A stretch of 35,763 bases of DNA from IMG/VR virus record IMGVR_UViG_3300032239_000289, positions 1 through 35,763 of that record, one strand, 5' to 3'. This stretch comes from a virus (taxonomy: Duplodnaviria; Caudoviricetes). The notes below the pieces were generated by a model that saw nothing but the letters and a program-made list of their open reading frames with translations, ran no database searches and had not been told where the DNA came from. A program made the position numbers and the translations under genes. Of the stretch, positions 476 to 35,763 are shown in pieces (within the stretch, counting starts at the first letter, position 1; every line of letters starts with the position of its first letter).

Positions 476-2785
476 TTGGACTTTATTGAATTTTATACTA
501 AGTTAGCACCAGAGGGTGAAACCGCCGTTATTGTGCGCCAAAAGCCACAGCTGGCAAGCGGTGAGCTGCAGTACCACGCCGACGGCGCTATCAAGTGCAC
601 ATGGCCTGCGTACTTGCCTAGCCACAGCACACGCAAGGATCAAGCGTGGTACGGCAACACCGCGTCGTTCATTATTGACCGCTTCAAAGATGGCCGCGTG
701 TCGGCATCAATCGCTAACTGCGATTACGTGCTCGTCATGGTGCTTGATGACGTAGGCGATCCTGAGAAGGCACCCAACACCCCTCCGCTTGCACCTACGT
801 GGATCATGGAGACGTCGCCCAACTCGTTTCAGTGGGGTTACGCGTTTAGCGATCAGCCGACCAAGGGCGAGTACGCTGCAGCCATTGACGCGATCATCAA
901 GGCGGGTTACTGCGACCCAGGTGCGAATAATCCAGTGCGCAACTTCCGCCTGCCAGGCTCGGTCAATCTAAAGCCAGGCCGCGATCGGTTTGCGTCGCGT
1001 CTGGTCGAGTTCCACCCTGAGCGTGAGTACAGCCTGCCGGAGATATGCGAAGCGTTGGGCGTTCAACCGTCCGAGCCTGAGTCGTTTGCAGTGCGCCCGA
1101 TCCGGCTATCGGATGATGGCGCTGACGACGTGATGGCGTGGCTCTCGAGCCAGAACCTAGTGCTGTCTGCCCCTAATTCTCGCGGGTGGGCGGGCGTCAT
1201 CTGCCCTAACCACGCATCGCACAGCGACGGTAACCCCGAGGGTGGTTACAGCCCGTCAACGCGATCCTACCGCTGCCTGCATGGCCACTGCGTTGACATC
1301 GACTCGCATGTGTTCTTGGATTGGGTGGCTGAGAACGGTGGCCCAAAACACGCGCCAGGCTTACGTGAAGAGCTGCTCGCGTCTGTGATGGATCATACAT
1401 TAGCCAAGCTAACACCGACCGCCGCGTTTCCTGACAAGGGTGCCGAGGTGATCGCCGAGGTCGAAAAGAAGCAGCTCGACCGCGTTGAGAAGGCCGACTG
1501 GTACAGCCGCTTTGCGTACATTCAGACCGATGACGCTTACTTTGACATGCTAGAGCGCCGAGAGCTGGCGCGCAATACGTTCAACGCATTGTTTAGGCAT
1601 GTGACCTGTCATTCATTACATAAGCAGAAAACGCCGCGTCGTATCGAGGCGTCGATTTGCTTTGATGAGAACCGCCAGAAGCAGGGCGCGCTTGCCTTGG
1701 TCGGCATCACCTACGCCGCAGGCGAGTCGGTGCTCGTCTCACGCGAAGGGCAGGTGTACGGCAACCGCTGGCAGGATCGCAGGCCGAAGGCCGTCGCCGG
1801 TGACGTCACGCAATGGTTAGAGCACGTCGAGCGCATGCTGCCGGAGAAATTCGAGCGCGAGCATGTGTTAAACGTCATGGCGTACAAGCTGCAGCACCCA
1901 GAGCGCAAGATCAATCACGCCGTTTTGCATATTGGCCACCCTGGCAGTGGTAAGGACACCATGTGGGAGCCGCTTTTATGGGGTATCGGTGGCGCAACGC
2001 ATGAGAACGTCGCTATCGTGCGTAACGAGGAGATCATGAGCCAATGGGGTTATGCGTTCGAGTCCGAGGTGATGGTGTTCGAGGAGTTGCGCCAAAGCGA
2101 AGCGAAGGATCGCCGCGCGTTAGAAAACCACCTAAAGCCCATCATTGCAGCGCCGCCGGAGTTCCTGCAGGTCAACCGCAAGGGCTTACACCCATACAAA
2201 GCATTAAACCGGCTGTTCGTGCTCGCGTTTAGTAACGAGCGCGTGCCGCTTAGCCTGCCATCGGATGATCGTCGATGGATGGTCGTGTACTCGGATGCGC
2301 CCAAAATGACCGAGGCCGAGGGCGCGTCGATGTGGGCGTGGTACGAGGCCGGAGGCGCGTCGGCTGTCTGCGCATGGCTGTATCAGCGCGACGTCTCAGC
2401 GTTCAATCCTGGGGCCGCTCCGCCGTTGACCGAGGCCAAAATGATTATGGTCGAGCAGGGCAGGTCAACCGCCGAATCTTATCTGGTAGAGATGATGCAC
2501 TCACGTTTAAGCGAGTTTTCAGCCGGTGTCGTGGCGTCGCCGTTCTATGCGTTGTGCGACCGCTTATCGGGCGGCGCACCGTCGGGCACGCGCATACCGC
2601 AGGCTGCACTATTGCACGCATTGAAGGAAGCCGGCTGGGTCGATTGTGGGCGTGTTGGTACGCGTGAATTTCAGACCAAGAAGCATATATTCTGCGCGCC
2701 GGATATGACTGACGTGCCACGTTCAGAGCTTCGCGCTATGGTCGAGGACAAGCCGGCACCGTCAGCAGTTCGCCTGGTCAAATAG
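476..2785 (+). CDS. Primase-helicase (RepB/AEP-like primase N-terminus, Zn-binding middle, SF3/DUF5906-type helicase)
   Basis: MVLDD, ETSPNSFQWG and RNFRLPGS primase-type motifs; CPNHASH...CLHGHC; Walker A GHPGSGKDT; Walker B VMVFEE; FSN...DDRR; TTG start with AGGAG RBS. Confidence 0.9.
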   Translation: MDFIEFYTKLAPEGETAVIVRQKPQLASGELQYHADGAIKCTWPAYLPSHSTRKDQAWYGNTASFIIDRFKDGRVSASIANCDYVLVMVLDDVGDPEKAPNTPPLAPTWIMETSPNSFQWGYAFSDQPTKGEYAAAIDAIIKAGYCDPGANNPVRNFRLPGSVNLKPGRDRFASRLVEFHPEREYSLPEICEALGVQPSEPESFAVRPIRLSDDGADDVMAWLSSQNLVLSAPNSRGWAGVICPNHASHSDGNPEGGYSPSTRSYRCLHGHCVDIDSHVFLDWVAENGGPKHAPGLREELLASVMDHTLAKLTPTAAFPDKGAEVIAEVEKKQLDRVEKADWYSRFAYIQTDDAYFDMLERRELARNTFNALFRHVTCHSLHKQKTPRRIEASICFDENRQKQGALALVGITYAAGESVLVSREGQVYGNRWQDRRPKAVAGDVTQWLEHVERMLPEKFEREHVLNVMAYKLQHPERKINHAVLHIGHPGSGKDTMWEPLLWGIGGATHENVAIVRNEEIMSQWGYAFESEVMVFEELRQSEAKDRRALENHLKPIIAAPPEFLQVNRKGLHPYKALNRLFVLAFSNERVPLSLPSDDRRWMVVYSDAPKMTEAEGASMWAWYEAGGASAVCAWLYQRDVSAFNPGAAPPLTEAKMIMVEQGRSTAESYLVEMMHSRLSEFSAGVVASPFYALCDRLSGGAPSGTRIPQAALLHALKEAGWVDCGRVGTREFQTKKHIFCAPDMTDVPRSELRAMVEDKPAPSAVRLVK

Positions 2786-2821: not shown

Positions 2822-2854
2822 AAAAAAAAGGCCCGCCAGAGGAGGATGCGGGCC
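2822..2854 (-). terminator. Terminator of the minus-strand early cassette
   Basis: Minus strand GGCCCGC-ATCCTCCTCTG-GCGGGCC followed by T8. Confidence 0.85.
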
Positions 2855-2877
2855 AAAAACCACAGGGTAAAATCAGA

Positions 2878-2937
2878 TTATAAGCCGAGAAGTATTGCGA
2901 GCATAGCTGCTAGAATCAGTCCGAGAAGCGCGAACAT
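2878..2937 (-). CDS. 19-aa hydrophobic peptide MFALLGLILAAMLAILLGL
   Basis: ATG with GAGGGG RBS; TAA immediately before the terminator element; last ORF of the cassette; too short for the ORF track. Confidence 0.6.
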   Translation of the reverse strand: MFALLGLILAAMLAILLGL

Positions 2938-3173
2938 GCGGACCCCTCGATTTCCTTTATCACGTTATCACGTAGCAGGGCGACGACGTCAACGCCGCCC
3001 GCGTAGGCATGCACTAACCACGCACTGCCGTTATAGCCCACGCCACGATCCGGCGCGCTATATTCGAGAAAACATAGCAGGGTTCCCGTGTCGTACTCGT
3101 ACTCGTACACATGCAAATGTTGCGGCCACCAGGGCGAGTGCGTGTCAATAACAGAGTTCTTAAGCTTGCCCAT
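2916..3173 (-). CDS. Hypothetical protein (85 aa)
   Basis: ORF in a tightly coupled minus-strand cassette, G-rich RBS. Confidence 0.7.
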   Translation of the reverse strand: MGKLKNSVIDTHSPWWPQHLHVYEYEYDTGTLLCFLEYSAPDRGVGYNGSAWLVHAYAGGVDVVALLRDNVIKEIEGSACSRFSD

Positions 3174-3378
3174 TGATGCCCCCCATTCGGTTCATTAGAT
3201 ATTCAGTTGACGTCACAGCGCCCGCGTTGACTAGTTGCGCCGCGTTATATTCGGCGTAGTGCTGGCGCCCGTAACCTGGCCGCACGTAGCAATTTAGCTT
3301 TTGATAGTGTGGCAGGTACGTGACGCCGTTCAAGCGGTACACAATGAAGCTAGCCTTGTCTGTCATTTGATAATTCAT
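3160..3378 (-). CDS. Hypothetical protein (72 aa)
   Basis: ATGA overlap with the upstream gene, GAGGTG RBS. Confidence 0.7.
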   Translation of the reverse strand: MNYQMTDKASFIVYRLNGVTYLPHYQKLNCYVRPGYGRQHYAEYNAAQLVNAGAVTSTEYLMNRMGGINGQA

Positions 3379-3662
3379 GCTGTCACCTCATCCGGTAGTA
3401 TTTCAAATAATGGGATTGATGGATCATATTGCGGCGTACTTGTTTCACTTGCGCCGATATAATCTACCGCTTGCAGCATGTTCAACTTGTCAAAGGCCCG
3501 TATATAGGCCGCCGTTGACATGCTGTCGACCCATACTGGAAACTTTCGTATGTTCTTAGGTTTTGCCGGTTTATAGGGTTTTCTGGCCCGCTTAGTCAAT
3601 TCAAGCTGATCGCGGTCGAATTTAAGCTTGTACGTGGTGCCGTCAATAATTAAGGTTTGCAT
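3375..3662 (-). CDS. Hypothetical protein (95 aa)
   Basis: GGGGGA RBS; coupled to its neighbours. Confidence 0.75.
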   Translation of the reverse strand: MQTLIIDGTTYKLKFDRDQLELTKRARKPYKPAKPKNIRKFPVWVDSMSTAAYIRAFDKLNMLQAVDYIGASETSTPQYDPSIPLFEILPDEVTA

Positions 3663-3674
3663 AAAATCCCCCGT

Positions 3675-3998
3675 TTAAAATTGAACGTAAATAATAGCGC
3701 CCGCTTCGGTTACGCCGATAACGGTCGTTTCATCGTGCAGATAATCTAATACGTTAAGCAGTTCGTTTCCGTCATCTTCGAGGTCGATGGAATAATCGCG
3801 GGCAATATCCTCTGGCAATTGCTCGGATAATTCGCAGCAAAGGGCGATCACGTCGAGTTCATACTCCTCGCCTAAATCGCGCTCTTGGTCTTCTAGATAG
3901 TCGAATATTAGTCCGAGCGCGTCGTAACTGAATTGATCTTTGCGGCCTGCGCGCGCAAATGCGTCCCGAAAATCATAGAGTGATACAGTAGTTTTCAT
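3675..3998 (-). CDS. Acidic hypothetical phage protein (107 aa)
   Basis: GGAG RBS; Asp/Glu-rich; FSYDAL...ELDVIALCCE. Confidence 0.85.
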   Translation of the reverse strand: MKTTVSLYDFRDAFARAGRKDQFSYDALGLIFDYLEDQERDLGEEYELDVIALCCELSEQLPEDIARDYSIDLEDDGNELLNVLDYLHDETTVIGVTEAGAIIYVQF

Positions 3999-4000
3999 GG

Positions 4001-4261
4001 TTAGTTTTCTCCGTAAACGATAGCGAAAATCGGTTCGTGCGTTTTCTTGTCAACAATAACCACATTGTGCCCGTCGTCTTCTATGTCGCCTAATTCAGGG
4101 TTACGGATAAAGCCCGCTTCGCACATTGCCGACAAAATGTCACTCGACGGCGCGTTTATATCTAATTCAACCTTGCCAGCGTTGAACCATTGATTCCACG
4201 TCCAAGAACATGGTTCGTCACTTGCCCACGCTTCGATTGATAATACTTGATAAGATTTCAT
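4001..4261 (-). CDS. Hypothetical protein (86 aa, MKSYQVLS...)
   Basis: Start moved to ATG 4261, which is preceded by GGAGG. Confidence 0.8.
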   Translation of the reverse strand: MKSYQVLSIEAWASDEPCSWTWNQWFNAGKVELDINAPSSDILSAMCEAGFIRNPELGDIEDDGHNVVIVDKKTHEPIFAIVYGEN

Positions 4262-4263
4262 AA

Positions 4264-4422
4264 TTAACCCCTCCAAGTAATTGAAACGATGAACGACAGC
4301 GCGCACGTCAGGCCGCCTAACATGCACTCGCCCGTATTGAACACGTTTTCAACCGCGCCAATAAATAGCAGCCCTAAGCCTGCGCCCGCTAATGCTGCAG
4401 TAATTAAATTAAGTTTTTGCAT
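4264..4422 (-). CDS. Small membrane protein (52 aa, MQKLNLITAALAGAGLGLLFIGAVENVFNTGECMLGGLTCALSFIVSITWRG)
   Basis: AAGGGA RBS; two hydrophobic segments; stop 2 nt before the next ATG; not in the ORF track. Confidence 0.7.
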   Translation of the reverse strand: MQKLNLITAALAGAGLGLLFIGAVENVFNTGECMLGGLTCALSFIVSITWRG

Positions 4423-4448
4423 TTTGATTTTCCCTTGTGGTTTTTATT

Positions 4449-4470
4449 GGCCCGCTTTCGCGGGCCTTTT
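4449..4470. promoter_or_regulatory. Intergenic stem-loop GGCCCGC-GAAA-GCGGGCC (minus-strand reading); terminator-like on the plus strand
   Basis: Perfect 7-bp stem; GNRA loop on the minus strand; T4 follows on the plus strand. Confidence 0.65.
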
Positions 4471-4626: not shown

Positions 4627-4746
4627 TTTTTCTCCCTGTTTTGTAAAAGTTTATTTTATACTGCAGATCGATTCTCTCACAAAATAATTAGTTATAAAAG
4701 CTTTTATTGTATAACCTATTAAATTAGTCAAGTAATTGTCGCCAAG

Positions 4747-4956
4747 TGTAGGTAGTTTGAGCGGGCGAAAGTGCCCGCATGAAAAAGCGCGCCGATACTG
4801 GACTTTTTCAGCTTGTGGGTAATTGTAGGTAGTTTTATTTACTGCTTTAAATTTTCCAATTTCATACAGTAGTCTATACAGTAGTTGCCTATTATTTAGG
4901 CAGCGCTTACAGCCAGCGATTTAAACTACCGCCCACAATTGCCTACATTGCCTACA
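4747..4956. repeat. Inverted iteron-like array, putative replication origin
   Basis: TGTRGGTA at 4747, 4814, 4824; reverse YGCCYACA at 4930, 4940, 4949; AT-rich centre. Confidence 0.55.
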
Positions 4957-5009
4957 TAGCTTTTTAATAACACTTGCATGCCCTGATCCGCGTACCCGAA
5001 CCAAAAAAA

Positions 5010-5071
5010 GTGAGTGCTCACTAACATGCAAAGTTAGTGCTCACTAACCTAGTTAGTTAGTGCTTACTAAC
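5010..5071. promoter_or_regulatory. Three tandem near-palindromic protein-binding sites GTKAGTGCTYACTAAC at 23-bp spacing (SlmA-site-like)
   Basis: Copies start at 5010, 5033 and 5056. Confidence 0.75.
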
Positions 5072-5195
5072 ACATAGCTTTTTGGCAATTTTCTTTGGGG
5101 GAGGGGGGTAAGGGCCGCCGCGAACGGCCCTCGAAAACGGAGGGTTCGCAAACAATTTTTTTTTATTTTTAAACTACCCGCAATGACCCCCACGC

Positions 5196-5223: not shown

Positions 5224-5229
5224 GTGAGC

Positions 5230-5679
5230 ATGTTCAAATCAATCCCATTTTCTGTTCGTAAAGTAGAAGCGACTGAGGCGCGTCTTCAGGCGATCTATGA
5301 CGCTGCGGCTTTGGGCTTGAAGGGTGACTCGCTGGCGTTAGCTGCTGGCATGCGTCCAGAAGAATATCGACGGCTGTGTGAGTTTGATCCGATTGCGACG
5401 TTAGCCGAGCAGAAGGGTAGAGCAGACTCCGAAATGGAAGCTAGCAAGCATTTGCGTACAGCGGCCAGAGCAGGCGACGCTAAGGCAGCGTTGGCGATCC
5501 TGCAGCACAGCCACGGCTGGACAGCCAAGCAAGAGATCAGCATCGACGTCTATCAGAAGATCAGTATCACGCAGGCGTTAGAACAAGCCCAAAGCCGAGT
5601 CATCGACGGACTCATCACGGAACAACAACCCCAGACGTTACAAACTACACTGACACATGGCGCAACTGCCGATCTATGA
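5230..5679 (+). CDS. terS: Terminase small subunit (probable)
   Basis: Overlaps terL start; helical HTH-like N-terminus; AGDAKAALAILQH...W motif; alternative GTG start at 5224. Confidence 0.75.
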   Translation: MFKSIPFSVRKVEATEARLQAIYDAAALGLKGDSLALAAGMRPEEYRRLCEFDPIATLAEQKGRADSEMEASKHLRTAARAGDAKAALAILQHSHGWTAKQEISIDVYQKISITQALEQAQSRVIDGLITEQQPQTLQTTLTHGATADL

Positions 5680-7195
5680 TTCCGAGGGCGAGCAGCTCTT
5701 AATGACGCGGTTGTGGGCACCCACGATCGCGGACGATCCAGAAGCGTTCGTACTGTTTGCGTTTCCGTGGGGGCAACCCAACACACCGCTGGCTAAGTTC
5801 AAAGGCCCACGCACATGGCAGCGCAAGGTGCTGCGCAAGATAGCCACGCATCTAAAAAACAATCGCGGGCAAGTTGACATGGACGCCATGCGGGCGGCTG
5901 TCGCATCTGGCCGTGGTATTGGTAAGTCGGCGTTAGTTAGCTGGCTAATCCTGTGGATGCTGACCACTCGCATCGGGTCAAGCGTGATCGTGTCAGCTAA
6001 CAGCGAAGCTCAGTTGCGATCAGTGACTTGGGGTGAGTTGACCAAATGGCAGGCGATGGTCATTAACAACCACTGGTGGGAGATCAGCGCAACTAAGCTG
6101 GTGCCCGCTAAATGGGTGTCAGAGCTAGTCGAGCGCGACTTGAAGAAGGGTACCAGGTACTGGGGTGCTGAGGGTAAGCTGTGGTCGGAAGAAAATCCCG
6201 ACGCGTACGCCGGTGTGCACAACCATGACGGCATGATGCTGATCTTTGATGAGGCGTCTGGTATACCGGATGCGATCTGGTCGGTTGGTGCGGGCTTCTT
6301 CACCGAGCCGATATTGGATAGGTATTGGTTTGCGTTCAGTAACCCGCGACGCAACCAAGGCTACTTCTACGAATGCTTCCACGCTAAGCGTGCGTTTTGG
6401 CACACAGAGAACATCGACTCACGGGATGTCGAGGACACGGACAAGCAGATATATGAGCAGATCATTGCGGAATATGGCGAGGATTCGCCGCAGGCTAGGG
6501 TTGAGGTCTACGGTGAATTTCCATCGGCTGGCGAAGATCAGTTTATTGGTGCGCGTGCTGTCGACGAGGCCGCCGAGCGGCCAAAGTACAAGGATGAAAC
6601 GGCTCCGATTGTTATCGGAGTTGACCCAGCTCGAGGCGGCGCGGACGCCACCGTCATCGTCGTTAGACAAGGACGCGACTTGGTAGCGATCAAGCGGTAC
6701 CACGGCGAGGACACCATGACGACCGTTGGACGGGTGATCGATGCAATTGAAGAGTACCGGCCAGCACTAACAGTCATTGACGAAGGTGGATTGGGTTACG
6801 GAATACTTGACAGATTAAAAGAACAGCGATACAAGGTTCGTGGAGTAAACTTCGGTTGGAAGTCCAGCAAACCCGTCATGTGGGGTAACAAGCGTGCGGA
6901 GATGTGGGGCATGATGAAGGATTGGCTAAAGAGCGCCAGTATCCCGAACGACCGACAACTAAAAGCGGATTTGACCGGCCCGATGAAAAAGCCTGACTCG
7001 TCGGGTACGATCTATCTGGAAGGCAAGAAAGAGATGAAGTCTCGCGGTCTGGCCTCACCGGACGCAGCCGACGCACTAGCAGTGACGTTCGCGTTTCCGG
7101 TGGCTCATCGTGAGTCGAGTTATGACCGCGCAACGCGAGGTGCACCGCGTGCGTACCAACAGCAAACAGCCGCAACGGGATGGATGGGGAACTGA
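5657..7195 (+). CDS. terL: Terminase large subunit
   Basis: Walker A SGRGIGKS, Walker B MMLIFDEASG, FSNP coupling motif, nuclease GVDPARGGAD and SPDAADA. Confidence 0.96.
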   Translation: MAQLPIYDSEGEQLLMTRLWAPTIADDPEAFVLFAFPWGQPNTPLAKFKGPRTWQRKVLRKIATHLKNNRGQVDMDAMRAAVASGRGIGKSALVSWLILWMLTTRIGSSVIVSANSEAQLRSVTWGELTKWQAMVINNHWWEISATKLVPAKWVSELVERDLKKGTRYWGAEGKLWSEENPDAYAGVHNHDGMMLIFDEASGIPDAIWSVGAGFFTEPILDRYWFAFSNPRRNQGYFYECFHAKRAFWHTENIDSRDVEDTDKQIYEQIIAEYGEDSPQARVEVYGEFPSAGEDQFIGARAVDEAAERPKYKDETAPIVIGVDPARGGADATVIVVRQGRDLVAIKRYHGEDTMTTVGRVIDAIEEYRPALTVIDEGGLGYGILDRLKEQRYKVRGVNFGWKSSKPVMWGNKRAEMWGMMKDWLKSASIPNDRQLKADLTGPMKKPDSSGTIYLEGKKEMKSRGLASPDAADALAVTFAFPVAHRESSYDRATRGAPRAYQQQTAATGWMGN

Positions 7196-25697: not shown

Positions 25698-26327
25698 ATG
25701 AGTGTAGGACTCAAAGGAAATGCCGATGGATCGGGAGCCATTCAAGTTGGTGGCTCGGATGCCATTACGATCACAACAGGTTTAAATACGACGTTTGCGG
25801 GTACGGTTACTTCAGCTAGCACGATAGTGGCTGCCACAGGTACGCTATACCCACTTGTGTCGGGCACTGCTGTTGCATCTACGTCCGGTACGTCAATTGA
25901 CTTTACAAATATACCATCGTGGGTTAAACGAGTTACTGTAATGCTTAATGGTGTATCTACAAGTGGAACGTCAGTTACACAAATACAACTTGGAACTTCT
26001 GGTGGGGTTGTTAGTTCGGGCTACGATTCTCGAATTTATTCTTTTACAGGTGGCAGTCAAGGAACCTCAGTTACTTCTGGATTTGTTCTTGAAGCAACTG
26101 CCGCAGCAGCAGCTGCAAATGTACGAATAGGCGCTATTTATTTACTTAACATATCTGGTAATAATTGGGTGGCAACTGGGTCACAATCACAAATTACTAC
26201 CAATGGCGCTCAATCATGGATTAATGGTTCTATAGCTTTATCAAGTGCTTTAACAACGGTGCGTTTAACAACAGCTAACGGCACAGACACCTTTGACGCT
26301 GGTTCAATTAACATCTTTTACGAGTAA
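25698..26327 (+). CDS. Tail fibre tip-like protein, paralog 1
   Basis: SGTAVASTSGTSIDFT.IPSWVKR...GTDTFDAGSINI.YE. Confidence 0.8.
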   Translation: MSVGLKGNADGSGAIQVGGSDAITITTGLNTTFAGTVTSASTIVAATGTLYPLVSGTAVASTSGTSIDFTNIPSWVKRVTVMLNGVSTSGTSVTQIQLGTSGGVVSSGYDSRIYSFTGGSQGTSVTSGFVLEATAAAAAANVRIGAIYLLNISGNNWVATGSQSQITTNGAQSWINGSIALSSALTTVRLTTANGTDTFDAGSINIFYE

Positions 26328-26332
26328 TTATC

Positions 26333-26458
26333 ATGACACACAGAATCGTAGTCAACGTACAAACCGGCGAAGTGACCGAAGTGCCATTGACGCCAGAAGA
26401 GCAAGCGGCGTTCGACGCTGCACAAGCGCAGCAGCAAACTGAGGAACCGACATCATGA
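26333..26458 (+). CDS. Small tail-associated protein (41 aa, MTHRIVVNVQTGEVTEVPLTPEE...)
   Basis: Fills the gap between the paralogs; ATGA overlap with the next gene; not in the ORF track. Confidence 0.75.
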   Translation: MTHRIVVNVQTGEVTEVPLTPEEQAAFDAAQAQQQTEEPTS

Positions 26459-27087
26459 CAGTAACTATTGACGGCACTAATGGCATAACGACTCCATCGC
26501 CCGTAGTCGTTCAAGGGTCAACCTCAGGGTCAATTACATTAGCTGCTCCTGCTGTGGCGGGATCAAACACAGCTACGCTACCAGCAGGTACTGGCACTGT
26601 CGCGGTACAAGGCGCGTCTACCAATATTGTGTCGGGTACGGCTGTTGCGTCAACGTCGGGTACTTCAATTGACTTTACTAGCATACCGTCATGGGTTAAG
26701 CGTATTACTGTAATGCTATCCGGCGTTAGTACAAGCGGCTCGAGTAACTACCAAATTCAAATAGGTAGTGGATCTGTAACAACATCTGGGTATAACAGTA
26801 CCGCCACAAGAACTGCTAGTACAGTATTGCAAACAACAACGGCAACATCTGGTTTTTTAGTAAACGTAGTAAACGCAAATAACTCTGTATTTGGCGCGTA
26901 CGTAATATCTTTAGTATCAGGTTTTTCTTATGTGCAGCAAGGAAATGGTTCGGATGCAACAAATGCTGCAAACTATTTTTCTGCTGGTGGCGTAACGCTT
27001 GGCGGAACTCTTGACCGTGTTCGCATCACCACTGTCAACGGCACAGACACCTTCGACGCGGGTTCAATCAACATCCTTTACGAGTAA
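26455..27087 (+). CDS. Tail fibre tip-like protein, paralog 2
   Basis: GSTSGSITLAAPAVAG; same conserved blocks as 25698-26327. Confidence 0.8.
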   Translation: MTVTIDGTNGITTPSPVVVQGSTSGSITLAAPAVAGSNTATLPAGTGTVAVQGASTNIVSGTAVASTSGTSIDFTSIPSWVKRITVMLSGVSTSGSSNYQIQIGSGSVTTSGYNSTATRTASTVLQTTTATSGFLVNVVNANNSVFGAYVISLVSGFSYVQQGNGSDATNAANYFSAGGVTLGGTLDRVRITTVNGTDTFDAGSINILYE

Positions 27088-33910: not shown

Positions 33911-35763
33911 ATGAAAATACTCTGGATTGATTTCGAGACGCGCAGTCGCTGCGATTTATCCTCGCGTGGAGTTTATAACTATGCACAAGACGCCAGTACA
34001 GATGTACTTTGTATGTCATACGCCTTTGATGATGGTGAAGTTTTCACCTGGACTCCCGACCAACCATTTCCCGATGAAGTGGCTAAGCACGATGGGACGA
34101 TATGCGCCCATAACGCCGCGTTTGAGCGGCTCATTTTCTGGTATGTCTTACAAATTAACTTTGAACTCGAGCAGTTCTACTGCACCGCTGCCCAAGCGCG
34201 TGCTAACTGCTTACCTGGAAGCCTTGAAGACGTCGGACGTGCGCTCAGCAGCCAAATGCGCAAAGACCACCGAGGAAGCCAGCTTATCCGTGCACTTTCC
34301 ATCCCTCGCGCTGATGGATCGTTTAACGATTCGCCCGAGCTAATGGCTGAGATGATTGCGTACTGCGAGCAGGACGTACGCGCTATGCGTGCCGTATCAC
34401 AAGCCATGCGGCCACTGTCCGACGTTGAGCTAGCCGACTATCACACGAACGAGCGCATCAACGACCGTGGCGTGTTGCTTGACTTACCATTGGCCAAAGC
34501 CGCGATCAAGTACGCTGCTGCTGAGCTTGACGAGATCGAGACGCTAGTTGCTGAGCTGACCGAAGGCCAGATCAAGTCCGTGCGCAGCCCTAAGATGCGC
34601 CAATGGGTGATGGATCGCGTAGGGCCGCAGGCGTTGAAGATGATGGAAACAATCAAAGACGGCGAGTTGAAGTACAGTATCGACAAGTCAGTACGCGCCA
34701 ATTTACTAGTTTTTGCGGAGGAAAACCCCGATGAGATTCCGGCCCATGTTGCGGACGTCATTCAATGTGCAGATGATCTCTGGGCGTCAAGCGTTGCGAA
34801 GTTCAGCCGCCTTGCGGGCTTGGCAGACGAGGACGATCAACGAGTACGAGGTGCTTTTGTCTTCGCTGGAGGGAGTGCCACCGGAAGAGCTTCCTCCTAC
34901 GGTGCGCAAGTTCACAATTTTACGAGAAAATGTGCCAAAGAACCCGAGGATGCTAGGCATGCTATGGTCAGAGGCCACAGCATCGTTCCAAGATTTGGAA
35001 GACGCATTACAGATGTTCTCAGGGGAATGCTCCGGCCCGCACTGATACCGGCAGCCGGTCATTCGTTCGTTGTAGCCGATTGGTCGGCCATCGAGGCACG
35101 CGTCACCCCGTGGGCGTCAGCCGACCCGCAAGCCGAGTCGGTGCTAGACGTCTTCCGCGAAGGCCGCGACATCTACATACGCGAGGCCGCAGGCATCTAC
35201 CGCATACCGGAGTCCCAGATCGGGCCAGAATCCGAAGAGCGCCAGATCGGTAAGGTCGCAATCCTGTCCCTTGGCTTCGGCGGCTCGGTTGGCGCGTTCT
35301 CGGCGATGGGTCGCAATTACGGTATCGTTATGGCCGAGTCGGATTCGCGTCGGATCGTTGACGCGTGGCGTCGTGCAAACCCGTGGGCCGTGCGCTATTG
35401 GGAAAAGCTTGAGAACGCCTACCGTAGCGCGTTGCGCAACCCTGGACGTGAGTTCTCAGCGGGGCGCGTTACGTACCTTTACGACAAGCAGCATCTCTGG
35501 TATGCGTTACCGTCTGGTCGCATTTTGTGCTACCCGTTCGCTAAGTTTGAGGGTGACGAGATCACGTATGTGAAGGCCGCATGGAAGCCAGCAGCAGATG
35601 CCAAAGAATGGCCAAGAGCGCGCTTGTGGCGTGGGCTTGCATGTGAGAACATAACGCAGGCAATCGCGCACGATTTGCTGCGCCATTCCTTACGCCAATT
35701 ATCTGACACCGTCCTACATGTACATGATGAAATCGTACTCGAGTCAAAAAATCCCGAAGCTGA
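33911..35763 (+). CDS. polA: DNA polymerase family A with 3'-5' exonuclease (650 aa when joined to 1-430; runs off the window end)
   Basis: Own translation: IDFET (ExoI), HNAAFE (ExoII), YCEQD (ExoIII), INDRG, TGRASS, VADWSAIEARV (A), RQIGKVAILSLGFGG (B), VHDE (C); missed by the ORF track. Confidence 0.95.
   Translation, partial: MKILWIDFETRSRCDLSSRGVYNYAQDASTDVLCMSYAFDDGEVFTWTPDQPFPDEVAKHDGTICAHNAAFERLIFWYVLQINFELEQFYCTAAQARANCLPGSLEDVGRALSSQMRKDHRGSQLIRALSIPRADGSFNDSPELMAEMIAYCEQDVRAMRAVSQAMRPLSDVELADYHTNERINDRGVLLDLPLAKAAIKYAAAELDEIETLVAELTEGQIKSVRSPKMRQWVMDRVGPQALKMMETIKDGELKYSIDKSVRANLLVFAEENPDEIPAHVADVIQCADDLWASSVAKFSRLAGLADEDDQRVRGAFVFAGGSATGRASSYGAQVHNFTRKCAKEPEDARHAMVRGHSIVPRFGRRITDVLRGMLRPALIPAAGHSFVVADWSAIEARVTPWASADPQAESVLDVFREGRDIYIREAAGIYRIPESQIGPESEERQIGKVAILSLGFGGSVGAFSAMGRNYGIVMAESDSRRIVDAWRRANPWAVRYWEKLENAYRSALRNPGREFSAGRVTYLYDKQHLWYALPSGRILCYPFAKFEGDEITYVKAAWKPAADAKEWPRARLWRGLACENITQAIAHDLLRHSLRQLSDTVLHVHDEIVLESKNPEA
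35434..35763 (+). repeat. Terminal direct repeat, right copy
   Basis: Matches 1-330 (320/330 identical). Confidence 0.98.

Follow-up and report, generated by a model that had tools for sequence, protein, structure and literature searches.

In a group of uncultured phages with a P22-like portal, a cassette of small genes closes with a short, terminator-capped tail, and the exposed words of that tail differ between lineages and track the ribosome-binding site (RBS) words of the same lineage's cassette. Comparison of relatives establishes, at the level of sequence, the anatomy of this 3′ module, its conservation, and a lineage-matched complementarity to cassette RBSs that does not extend to late genes. 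Because the tail words are complementary to the RBSs of what are likely early genes, the tail likely acts as a small RNA (sRNA) that switches the operon off. We give about an even chance to the specific reading that the tail is a 3′-UTR autoregulatory sRNA resembling OppZ and CarZ that would shut off the cassette. The original prediction, made on a single genome, had proposed an RNA from the operon's 3′ end that pairs with the operon's own RBSs. That core idea gains family-wide comparative support, whereas the particulars of the genome that suggested it do not generalize.

The window, by which we mean the whole 35,763-nucleotide stretch analyzed, is a 35.8 kb virus record that encodes a P22-like portal and coat. 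Its first 300 bases recur at the record end; the two copies (1-300 and 35434-35733) are only 97% identical, which suggests strain mixing at the assembly join. Seven small minus-strand genes form the cassette, which lies between the primase and small terminase genes. A Pfam search of the seven yielded no match above cut-off, and one gene matches a PHROG of unknown function (phrog_9974). The cassette is likely an early operon, with "early" read from its layout and from a sigma70-like match at 4682-4653, a kind of match that occurs at a frequency near chance. No DNA match to the window was found among GenBank phages, and the nearest annotated relatives are DSL-LC05 (recorded under Gammaproteobacteria; terminase 73%) and a Manatee Spring genome. 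Hits of the phage to metagenome-assembled genomes fall in conflicting taxa. The features of the region are as follows.

476-2785, plus strand: primase gene, converging on the cassette tail
2822-2829, minus strand: U8 tail of the intrinsic terminator closing the cassette
2830-2854, minus strand: terminator hairpin, 7-bp GC stem and 11-nt loop AUCCUCCUCUG (anti-SD word)
2855-2877, minus strand: single-stranded 3′ UTR with the predicted seed (ACCCUGUGG) and a U-rich stretch before the stem; candidate sRNA body
2878-2937, minus strand: 19-aa hydrophobic ORF MFALLGLILAAMLAILLGL, last cassette gene
2916-3173, 3160-3378, 3375-3662, 3675-3998 and 4001-4261, minus strand: five small cassette genes
3675-3998, minus strand: phrog_9974 match (function unknown), the sole family match among the five
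4264-4422, minus strand: gene 2, encoding a hydrophobic protein of 52 aa without a known family; ranks first among the predicted targets
4425-4445, minus strand: gene 2 leader and RBS (AAAAACCACAAGGGAAAAUCA), 19/21 complementary to the tail
4449-4466, minus strand: internal hairpin preceding the gene 2 RBS, with a GC stem and a GAAA (GNRA) loop
4474-4626, minus strand: cassette gene 1, 50-aa product without a known family
4632-4639, minus strand: gene 1 RBS ACAGGGAG, with a 6-bp match to the tail's CCCUGU
4653-4682, minus strand: candidate cassette promoter, sigma70-like TTGTGA-18-TAAAAT, 9/12
5224-5679: small terminase gene (terS)

Both inverted copies from which the original prediction started are indeed in the sequence, at 2822-2875 and 4425-4470. 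Their arms (2855-2875 and 4425-4445) are complementary at 19 of 21 nt (90%), identical 7-bp stems adjoin both arms, and GGCCCGC-N-GCGGGCC occurs exactly twice in the window (2830-2854 and 4449-4466), with 0 expected from 100 shuffles. The local score of 16 was equalled by 2 of 2,000 dinucleotide shuffles of the UTR, and the same UTR reached at most 11.5 against the 99 other cassettes. A pairing of about 28 nt with the leader and RBS of gene 2 had been predicted. The complementarity itself is real, but 7 of those nucleotides are stem arms; both RNAs already hold these arms in hairpins of about -18 kcal/mol, so the arms are unlikely to join the duplex. A realistic duplex between the tail and the gene 2 leader spans about 20 bp with two 1-nt bulges, at -23.4 kcal/mol raw and -20.8 kcal/mol after opening costs, and the gene 2 leader is the best predicted pairing among the 39 start regions scored in the window. 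The second match, between the tail's CCCUGU and ACAGGG in the gene 1 RBS, spans 6 bp as originally described.

The long match is private to this genome. When 100 distinct tails were scored against their own cassettes, the window reached 16, the next tail 12.5, and the median was 8.5. The long inverted repeat was accordingly rejected as a conserved feature, and with it the picture of a cassette bracketed by a conserved inverted element. No other cassette of the 100 comes near the window's match. The CCUCCU displayed by the window's terminator loop is as originally described, but an anti-SD word appears in only 8 of 100 terminator loops, and this feature too was rejected as conserved. The 21-nt match probably arose when the gene 2 leader was recently copied in inverted orientation and the copy came to occupy the seed slot; in the nine closest relatives of gene 2, the tail type differs from that of the window. 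Recent inverted duplication offers a fair explanation of the extra length of the window match. Across the family, a terminator and an internal hairpin with a common 6-bp arm coexist in only 3 of 36 cassettes.

The inverted copies might also be DNA inversion sites that flip the cassette, and the window does carry an inverted repeat of 21 plus 7 bp. Against this, the cassette genes lie opposite the primase in every locus compared (51/51 for g2, 142/142 for g5 and 164/164 for g7, not deduplicated), the repeat is unconserved, and a recombinase was not seen among the listed ORFs. With no flipped cassette at any locus, we rejected an invertible cassette, an alternative left open by the original prediction and now virtually out of the question.

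What relatives do share is a compact module at the 3′ end of the cassette. The element directly follows a 19-codon ORF (2878-2937) that had been overlooked in the original prediction. We gathered 80 terminase loci, 44 of which also contained the primase end. An initial filter called the peptide in 39 of 45 loci including the window, one call being wrong, and a looser filter regained most of the others. Each of the 21 genomes examined, namely the window plus 20 of 27 others, contains a single peptide-plus-terminator module, which also occurs in 116 of 117 further g7 loci with enough flank, these contigs not being deduplicated. In DSL-LC05, the module was not seen in the 600 nt read at the cassette end. 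At the single g7 locus without a peptide call (L291), g7 is still followed by a terminator and by a structured tail that shows CUCUUUCCCUC in a loop. Within the peptide ORF, synonymous differences exceed non-synonymous ones and second codon positions vary least, so that a small hydrophobic peptide ORF under coding constraint, as found in type I loci, is present here. An SD sequence precedes this ORF in 93 of 100 cassettes. The peptide, which is too short for profile libraries, occurs in two forms, one uncharged and one with Lys/Arg. The second class (L129-L148, L094-L098, L154 and L155) has an internal Lys and a C-terminal Arg-Arg and occupies the same slot as the uncharged peptide. With these two variants in one position, the conserved peptide is an unannotated phage microprotein family.

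The tails run 35-100 nt to the end of the stem, are terminator-capped, and lie between the last stop codon and an intrinsic terminator, as do 3′-UTR-derived sRNAs. Among 100 cassettes, U tails comprise 5-10 T, with at least 7 T in 73. Of 100 distinct tails, 86 have a 4-mer of anti-SD sequence on the 5′ side of the terminator; there, and not in the terminator loop, the anti-RBS word is also located in all 35 strong cases among relatives. Among tails with a separate seed hairpin, CUCC is present in 31 of 32 loops. Across 18 such hairpins, hand-picked from the 32 so that their lengths agree, UCUCC in the loop never varies, both partners have changed in 3 of 6 pairs, and 94% of cells pair; the covariation score was reached by 0 of 500 shuffles, a comparison that relatedness can inflate. 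This alignment demonstrates selection on the exposed anti-SD loop word. Upstream of the terminator stem, at least 3 T occur within 7 nt in 77 of 100 tails. The Hfq module has been described as a U-rich stretch, a hairpin and a poly(U) tail (PMC5558911), and with respect to the module as outlined there, the U-rich stretch, hairpin and long U tail of most phage tails fit at the sequence level.

A nearly identical motif, CCC(C/T)TGTGGTTTTT followed by a GGCCCGC stem, is found in another phage group (L081, L083, L085, L087, L089 and L092), where the terminators that carry it follow another gene; a strong inverted partner was not found in the fetched DNA. No protein match to the window was found at any of the 13 loci retrieved by an exact-motif scan of viral contigs; six of these loci belong to that other group.

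Pairs of tail and RBS words illustrate the lineage-matched complementarity: GCUCCC/GGGAGC in clade A, CUCCCG/CGGGAG in clade B, UACCCU/AGGGUA in clade D, CCGGU/ACCGG in clade E, UCGGUU/AACCGA and CUCUCC/GGAGAG in clade F, CUUGCU/AGCAAG in clade G, and UCGCUCC/GGAGCGA in clade H. Tails were scored against own- and other-clade cassette RBSs with a perfect-helix model that includes stacking energies, a tail opening cost and a generic anti-SD probe. For 58 cassettes in 9 clades (62 minus 4 false peptide calls), the own-clade assignment ranked at 1-2 in 362,880 permutations in three scoring modes; the clades, some of them related and hence non-independent, were set by hand from tail and peptide after the tails had been seen, and the "first three genes" scope was chosen after viewing the data. 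Without the window, the clade trace was -21.5; shuffling the tails gave -1.9 ± 2.3, and windows farther downstream on the same strand gave -2.9 ± 3.8. The clade signal was stronger than that of every control: shuffled tails (25 sets), downstream windows (12), the reversed strand and the peptide ORF. By gene set, in 20 genomes with gene starts from our own heuristic, the signal resides in the cassette (p = 0.0009) and not in other same-strand (0.24) or opposite-strand (0.86) genes. Most matched helices begin 8-16 nt before an ATG.

Blind clusters drawn from primase distance (94 of 99 cassettes) retain the signal at all five cut-offs, and the D-versus-F pattern repeats in new loci (42 usable of 48 new tails). 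Among tree contrasts, which are nested and therefore non-independent, 15 of 16 at a distance of at least 0.18 favor the own cassette, compared with only 9 of 21 at shallower distances. Complementarity in relatives was found in lineage-matched form; the long form itself is unshared. This complementarity to the translation initiation regions of the own operon is weak in clade C and within clades.

Several observations count against pairing. Most relatives pair through only 5-8 bp, the long match being that of the window alone. Under a fuller duplex model, in which 34 of the 58 cassettes were scored, the own cassette was in the top tenth for 6 of 34, with a mean rank of 0.41. Covariation within clades was absent (p = 0.27, 0.81 and 0.27), and for two tails with a changed UCAGUU seed, a compensating RBS change was not found. 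Clade C, which comprises 18 of the 58 cassettes and carries a CAGUUGCC word, lacks an individual-level signal. In clade C loci such as L048, L059 and L066, the peptide stop is immediately followed by a CAGTTGCC word that does not vary; it is not anti-SD, and only 5-nt CAACT matches to it occur near some starts. Mismatches flanking own helices show no G-U enrichment (31 of 196, versus 45 reverse transitions).

Some of these observations would also be expected of a neutral by-product. Read in the opposite direction, a leader hairpin and its A-rich RBS become a hairpin and a U tract, and inverted duplication of an early leader could, on more than one occasion, have produced the terminator, leaving the anti-RBS words as hitchhikers that do not pair. 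The whole 3′ element of the window does resemble a flipped gene 2 leader, D-clade tails resemble flipped D-clade leaders, covariation is found between and not within clades, and a G-U bias is absent. In clades A, F, H and I, however, the word occupies a separate hairpin loop and is unchanged where the stems have undergone compensatory changes, a pattern not predicted by hitchhiking, and the arm common to terminator and internal hairpin is confined to the 3 of 36 cassettes noted above. We regard the neutral account as unlikely.

Alternatively, the tail could be an sRNA aimed mainly at host mRNAs, a general anti-SD damper of translation for which pairing with phage RBSs is secondary. Exposed CUCC words would pair with any GGAG site, and lambda PreS is described as targeting host mRNAs (bioRxiv 10.1101/2024.10.31.621285). 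The best Rfam hit at 2823-2875 is likewise to a Betaproteobacteria toxic small RNA family, RF02278, whose consensus begins with a pyrimidine-rich CUCCUCC. As that family is presented in its source, the RNAs are 57-92 nt long and terminator-capped, close in size to the tail, but free-standing and chromosomal, whereas the phage tail ends an operon (PMC4603805). Membership was rejected at 17.5 bits (E 2.8) against a gathering threshold of 50, with no hit in the loci of seven relatives. Moreover, the seeds follow the RBS words of the phage's own cassette and not those of late genes, whereas a host-directed RNA would be expected to spare phage early RBSs and not to match them. A primarily host-directed role is therefore improbable in our view.

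The strand from which the tail acts also needs consideration, since covariation at the DNA level cannot separate a complement from a mimic. The working RNA could be the plus strand, formed by read-through from the primase operon that crosses the cassette as far as the internal hairpin, and acting as a long antisense RNA that silences the cassette or as GGAG-loop RBS mimics that decoy an RNA-binding protein. Between primase and cassette, terminator calls on the plus strand are absent, whereas the hairpin at 4449-4466 reads as one (called through 4470), and folding is more stable for the plus strand in 55 of 58 tails. G-rich strands generally fold more stably, and neither folding energy nor G-U bias is informative for the choice of strand: among hairpin wobbles, 6 cells are G-U when read on the minus strand, and 5 are C-A there but would be U-G on the opposite strand. 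The U tail and the sense of the GNRA loop point to the minus strand, the internal hairpin occurs in only 36 of 100 cassettes, and a long antisense RNA needs no lineage-matched seed. The position of GGA in the plus-strand loops would not be expected to fit the CsrA consensus. By inspection, no plus-strand ORF is conserved behind the RBS-like plus-strand reading. A plus-strand effector is very unlikely on this evidence.

The internal copy is, by comparison across cassettes, a separate family-wide GNRA leader hairpin plus RBS. These GC-stem hairpins, with GAAA or GCAA loops, lie mostly 17-27 nt before a cassette ATG and are often preceded by AATCAAAC. They could serve as stabilizers of processed mRNA, as antitermination sites or as stops for plus-strand read-through.

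Type I toxin mRNAs such as hok and Ibs feature long-distance 5′-3′ anti-SD pairing. By analogy, the tail could act in cis in the manner of hok or AapA, folding onto the RBS of the peptide or onto a 5′ RBS and keeping a toxic peptide untranslated until 3′ trimming. AapA/IsoA mRNAs, as covered in the source, similarly combine a small hydrophobic peptide ORF with a structured 3′ end bearing an anti-SD word, and 5′-3′ anti-SD pairing is presented there as a hallmark of type I loci (PMC6733600). The 19-aa peptide, hydrophobic or amphipathic and preceded by an SD in most cassettes, fits this description. Occlusion of the toxin SD by a 3′-end anti-SD word does not: the peptide RBS pairs with the tail at a probability above 0.3 in 22 of 100 cassettes, and pairing with the peptide's own coding region is commoner. 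The upstream targets are multiple and 1-2.7 kb away. Unlike type I loci as characterized in that source, the predicted targets here are other genes of the operon, and an antitoxin RNA was not found. For OppZ, cis pairing was excluded experimentally, according to the account of that sRNA (PMC7398697). Cis control of a toxin is a highly unlikely explanation of the module.

The closest parallels to the preferred reading, an autoregulatory sRNA, are OppZ and CarZ, 3′-UTR-derived autoregulatory sRNAs of Vibrio cholerae (PMC7398697; PMC9438474). OppZ, as described, originates by processing of the oppABCDF 3′ end, binds at the junction of oppA and oppB, and requires release, not cis fold-back (PMC7398697). 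The likeness lies in an RNA of about 50 nt from the operon 3′ end whose target, predicted in the phage case, is a translation start within that operon; the junction between gene 1 and gene 2 of the operon, bound by OppZ, is likewise the predicted site for the phage tail. OppZ and CarZ derive from chromosomal operons for transport and metabolism, and those reports demonstrate their processing, Hfq use and repression. The phage cassette differs from the published pair in having several predicted targets, a seed that varies between lineages together with the RBS words, and, directly upstream of the tail, a conserved peptide ORF. Among the phage-encoded RNAs that tune infection by base pairing are lambda PreS/LPR1, LPR2 and 6S as well as StxS; these act on host genes or on other phage transcripts, and among the RNAs covered in that preprint none is described as silencing the RBSs of its parent early operon (bioRxiv 10.1101/2024.10.31.621285).

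In the mechanism that we propose, transcription would start near 4650 and run along the minus strand to the terminator at 2822, and the terminator-capped tail of 50-60 nt would be released as a small RNA, by cleavage or from an internal promoter. The released tail, possibly with the help of Hfq, would pair over the SD regions of upstream cassette genes, in the window mainly genes 2 and 1. Translation of the cassette genes would then be shut off once full-length transcripts build up. The circuit would amount to a timer based on delayed negative feedback, which would keep costly membrane peptides in check, if these are expressed early as their position suggests. A broader and more tentative version, which we consider possible but would not bet on, is that uncultured P22-portal phages, as a widespread family, time their early phase by a dual-output 3′ module that encodes a 19-aa membrane peptide and a multi-target sRNA. 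Its seed would co-evolve with the RBS "dialect" of the lineage, providing an RNA-only early-off switch that silences much of the early operon, spares late genes and needs no repressor protein.

No description of the peptide-plus-tail module was found in the open-access literature searched. A phage 3′-UTR sRNA that targets its own operon would be unexpected and, if true, would bring feedback of the OppZ/CarZ kind into phage development. How phages that lack an obvious repressor shut off their early genes is understood mostly from model phages. The matched seed and RBS variants over about nine lineages form a natural series for cross-pair tests that can be carried out without culturing the phage.

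Other features of these genomes were noted in passing. The AT-rich gap between the cassette promoter and terS contains TTGCCTA repeats at about 4876-4960, and three copies spaced by 23 bp and containing GTGCT(C/T)ACTAAC lie at 5002-5072; together, these are candidate origin or packaging/operator sites. In one relative (L048), a tRNA gene at 5903-5974 lies just upstream of terS. Farther along the window, two adjoining paralogous late genes at 25855-27087 share blocks of 79-83% DNA identity.
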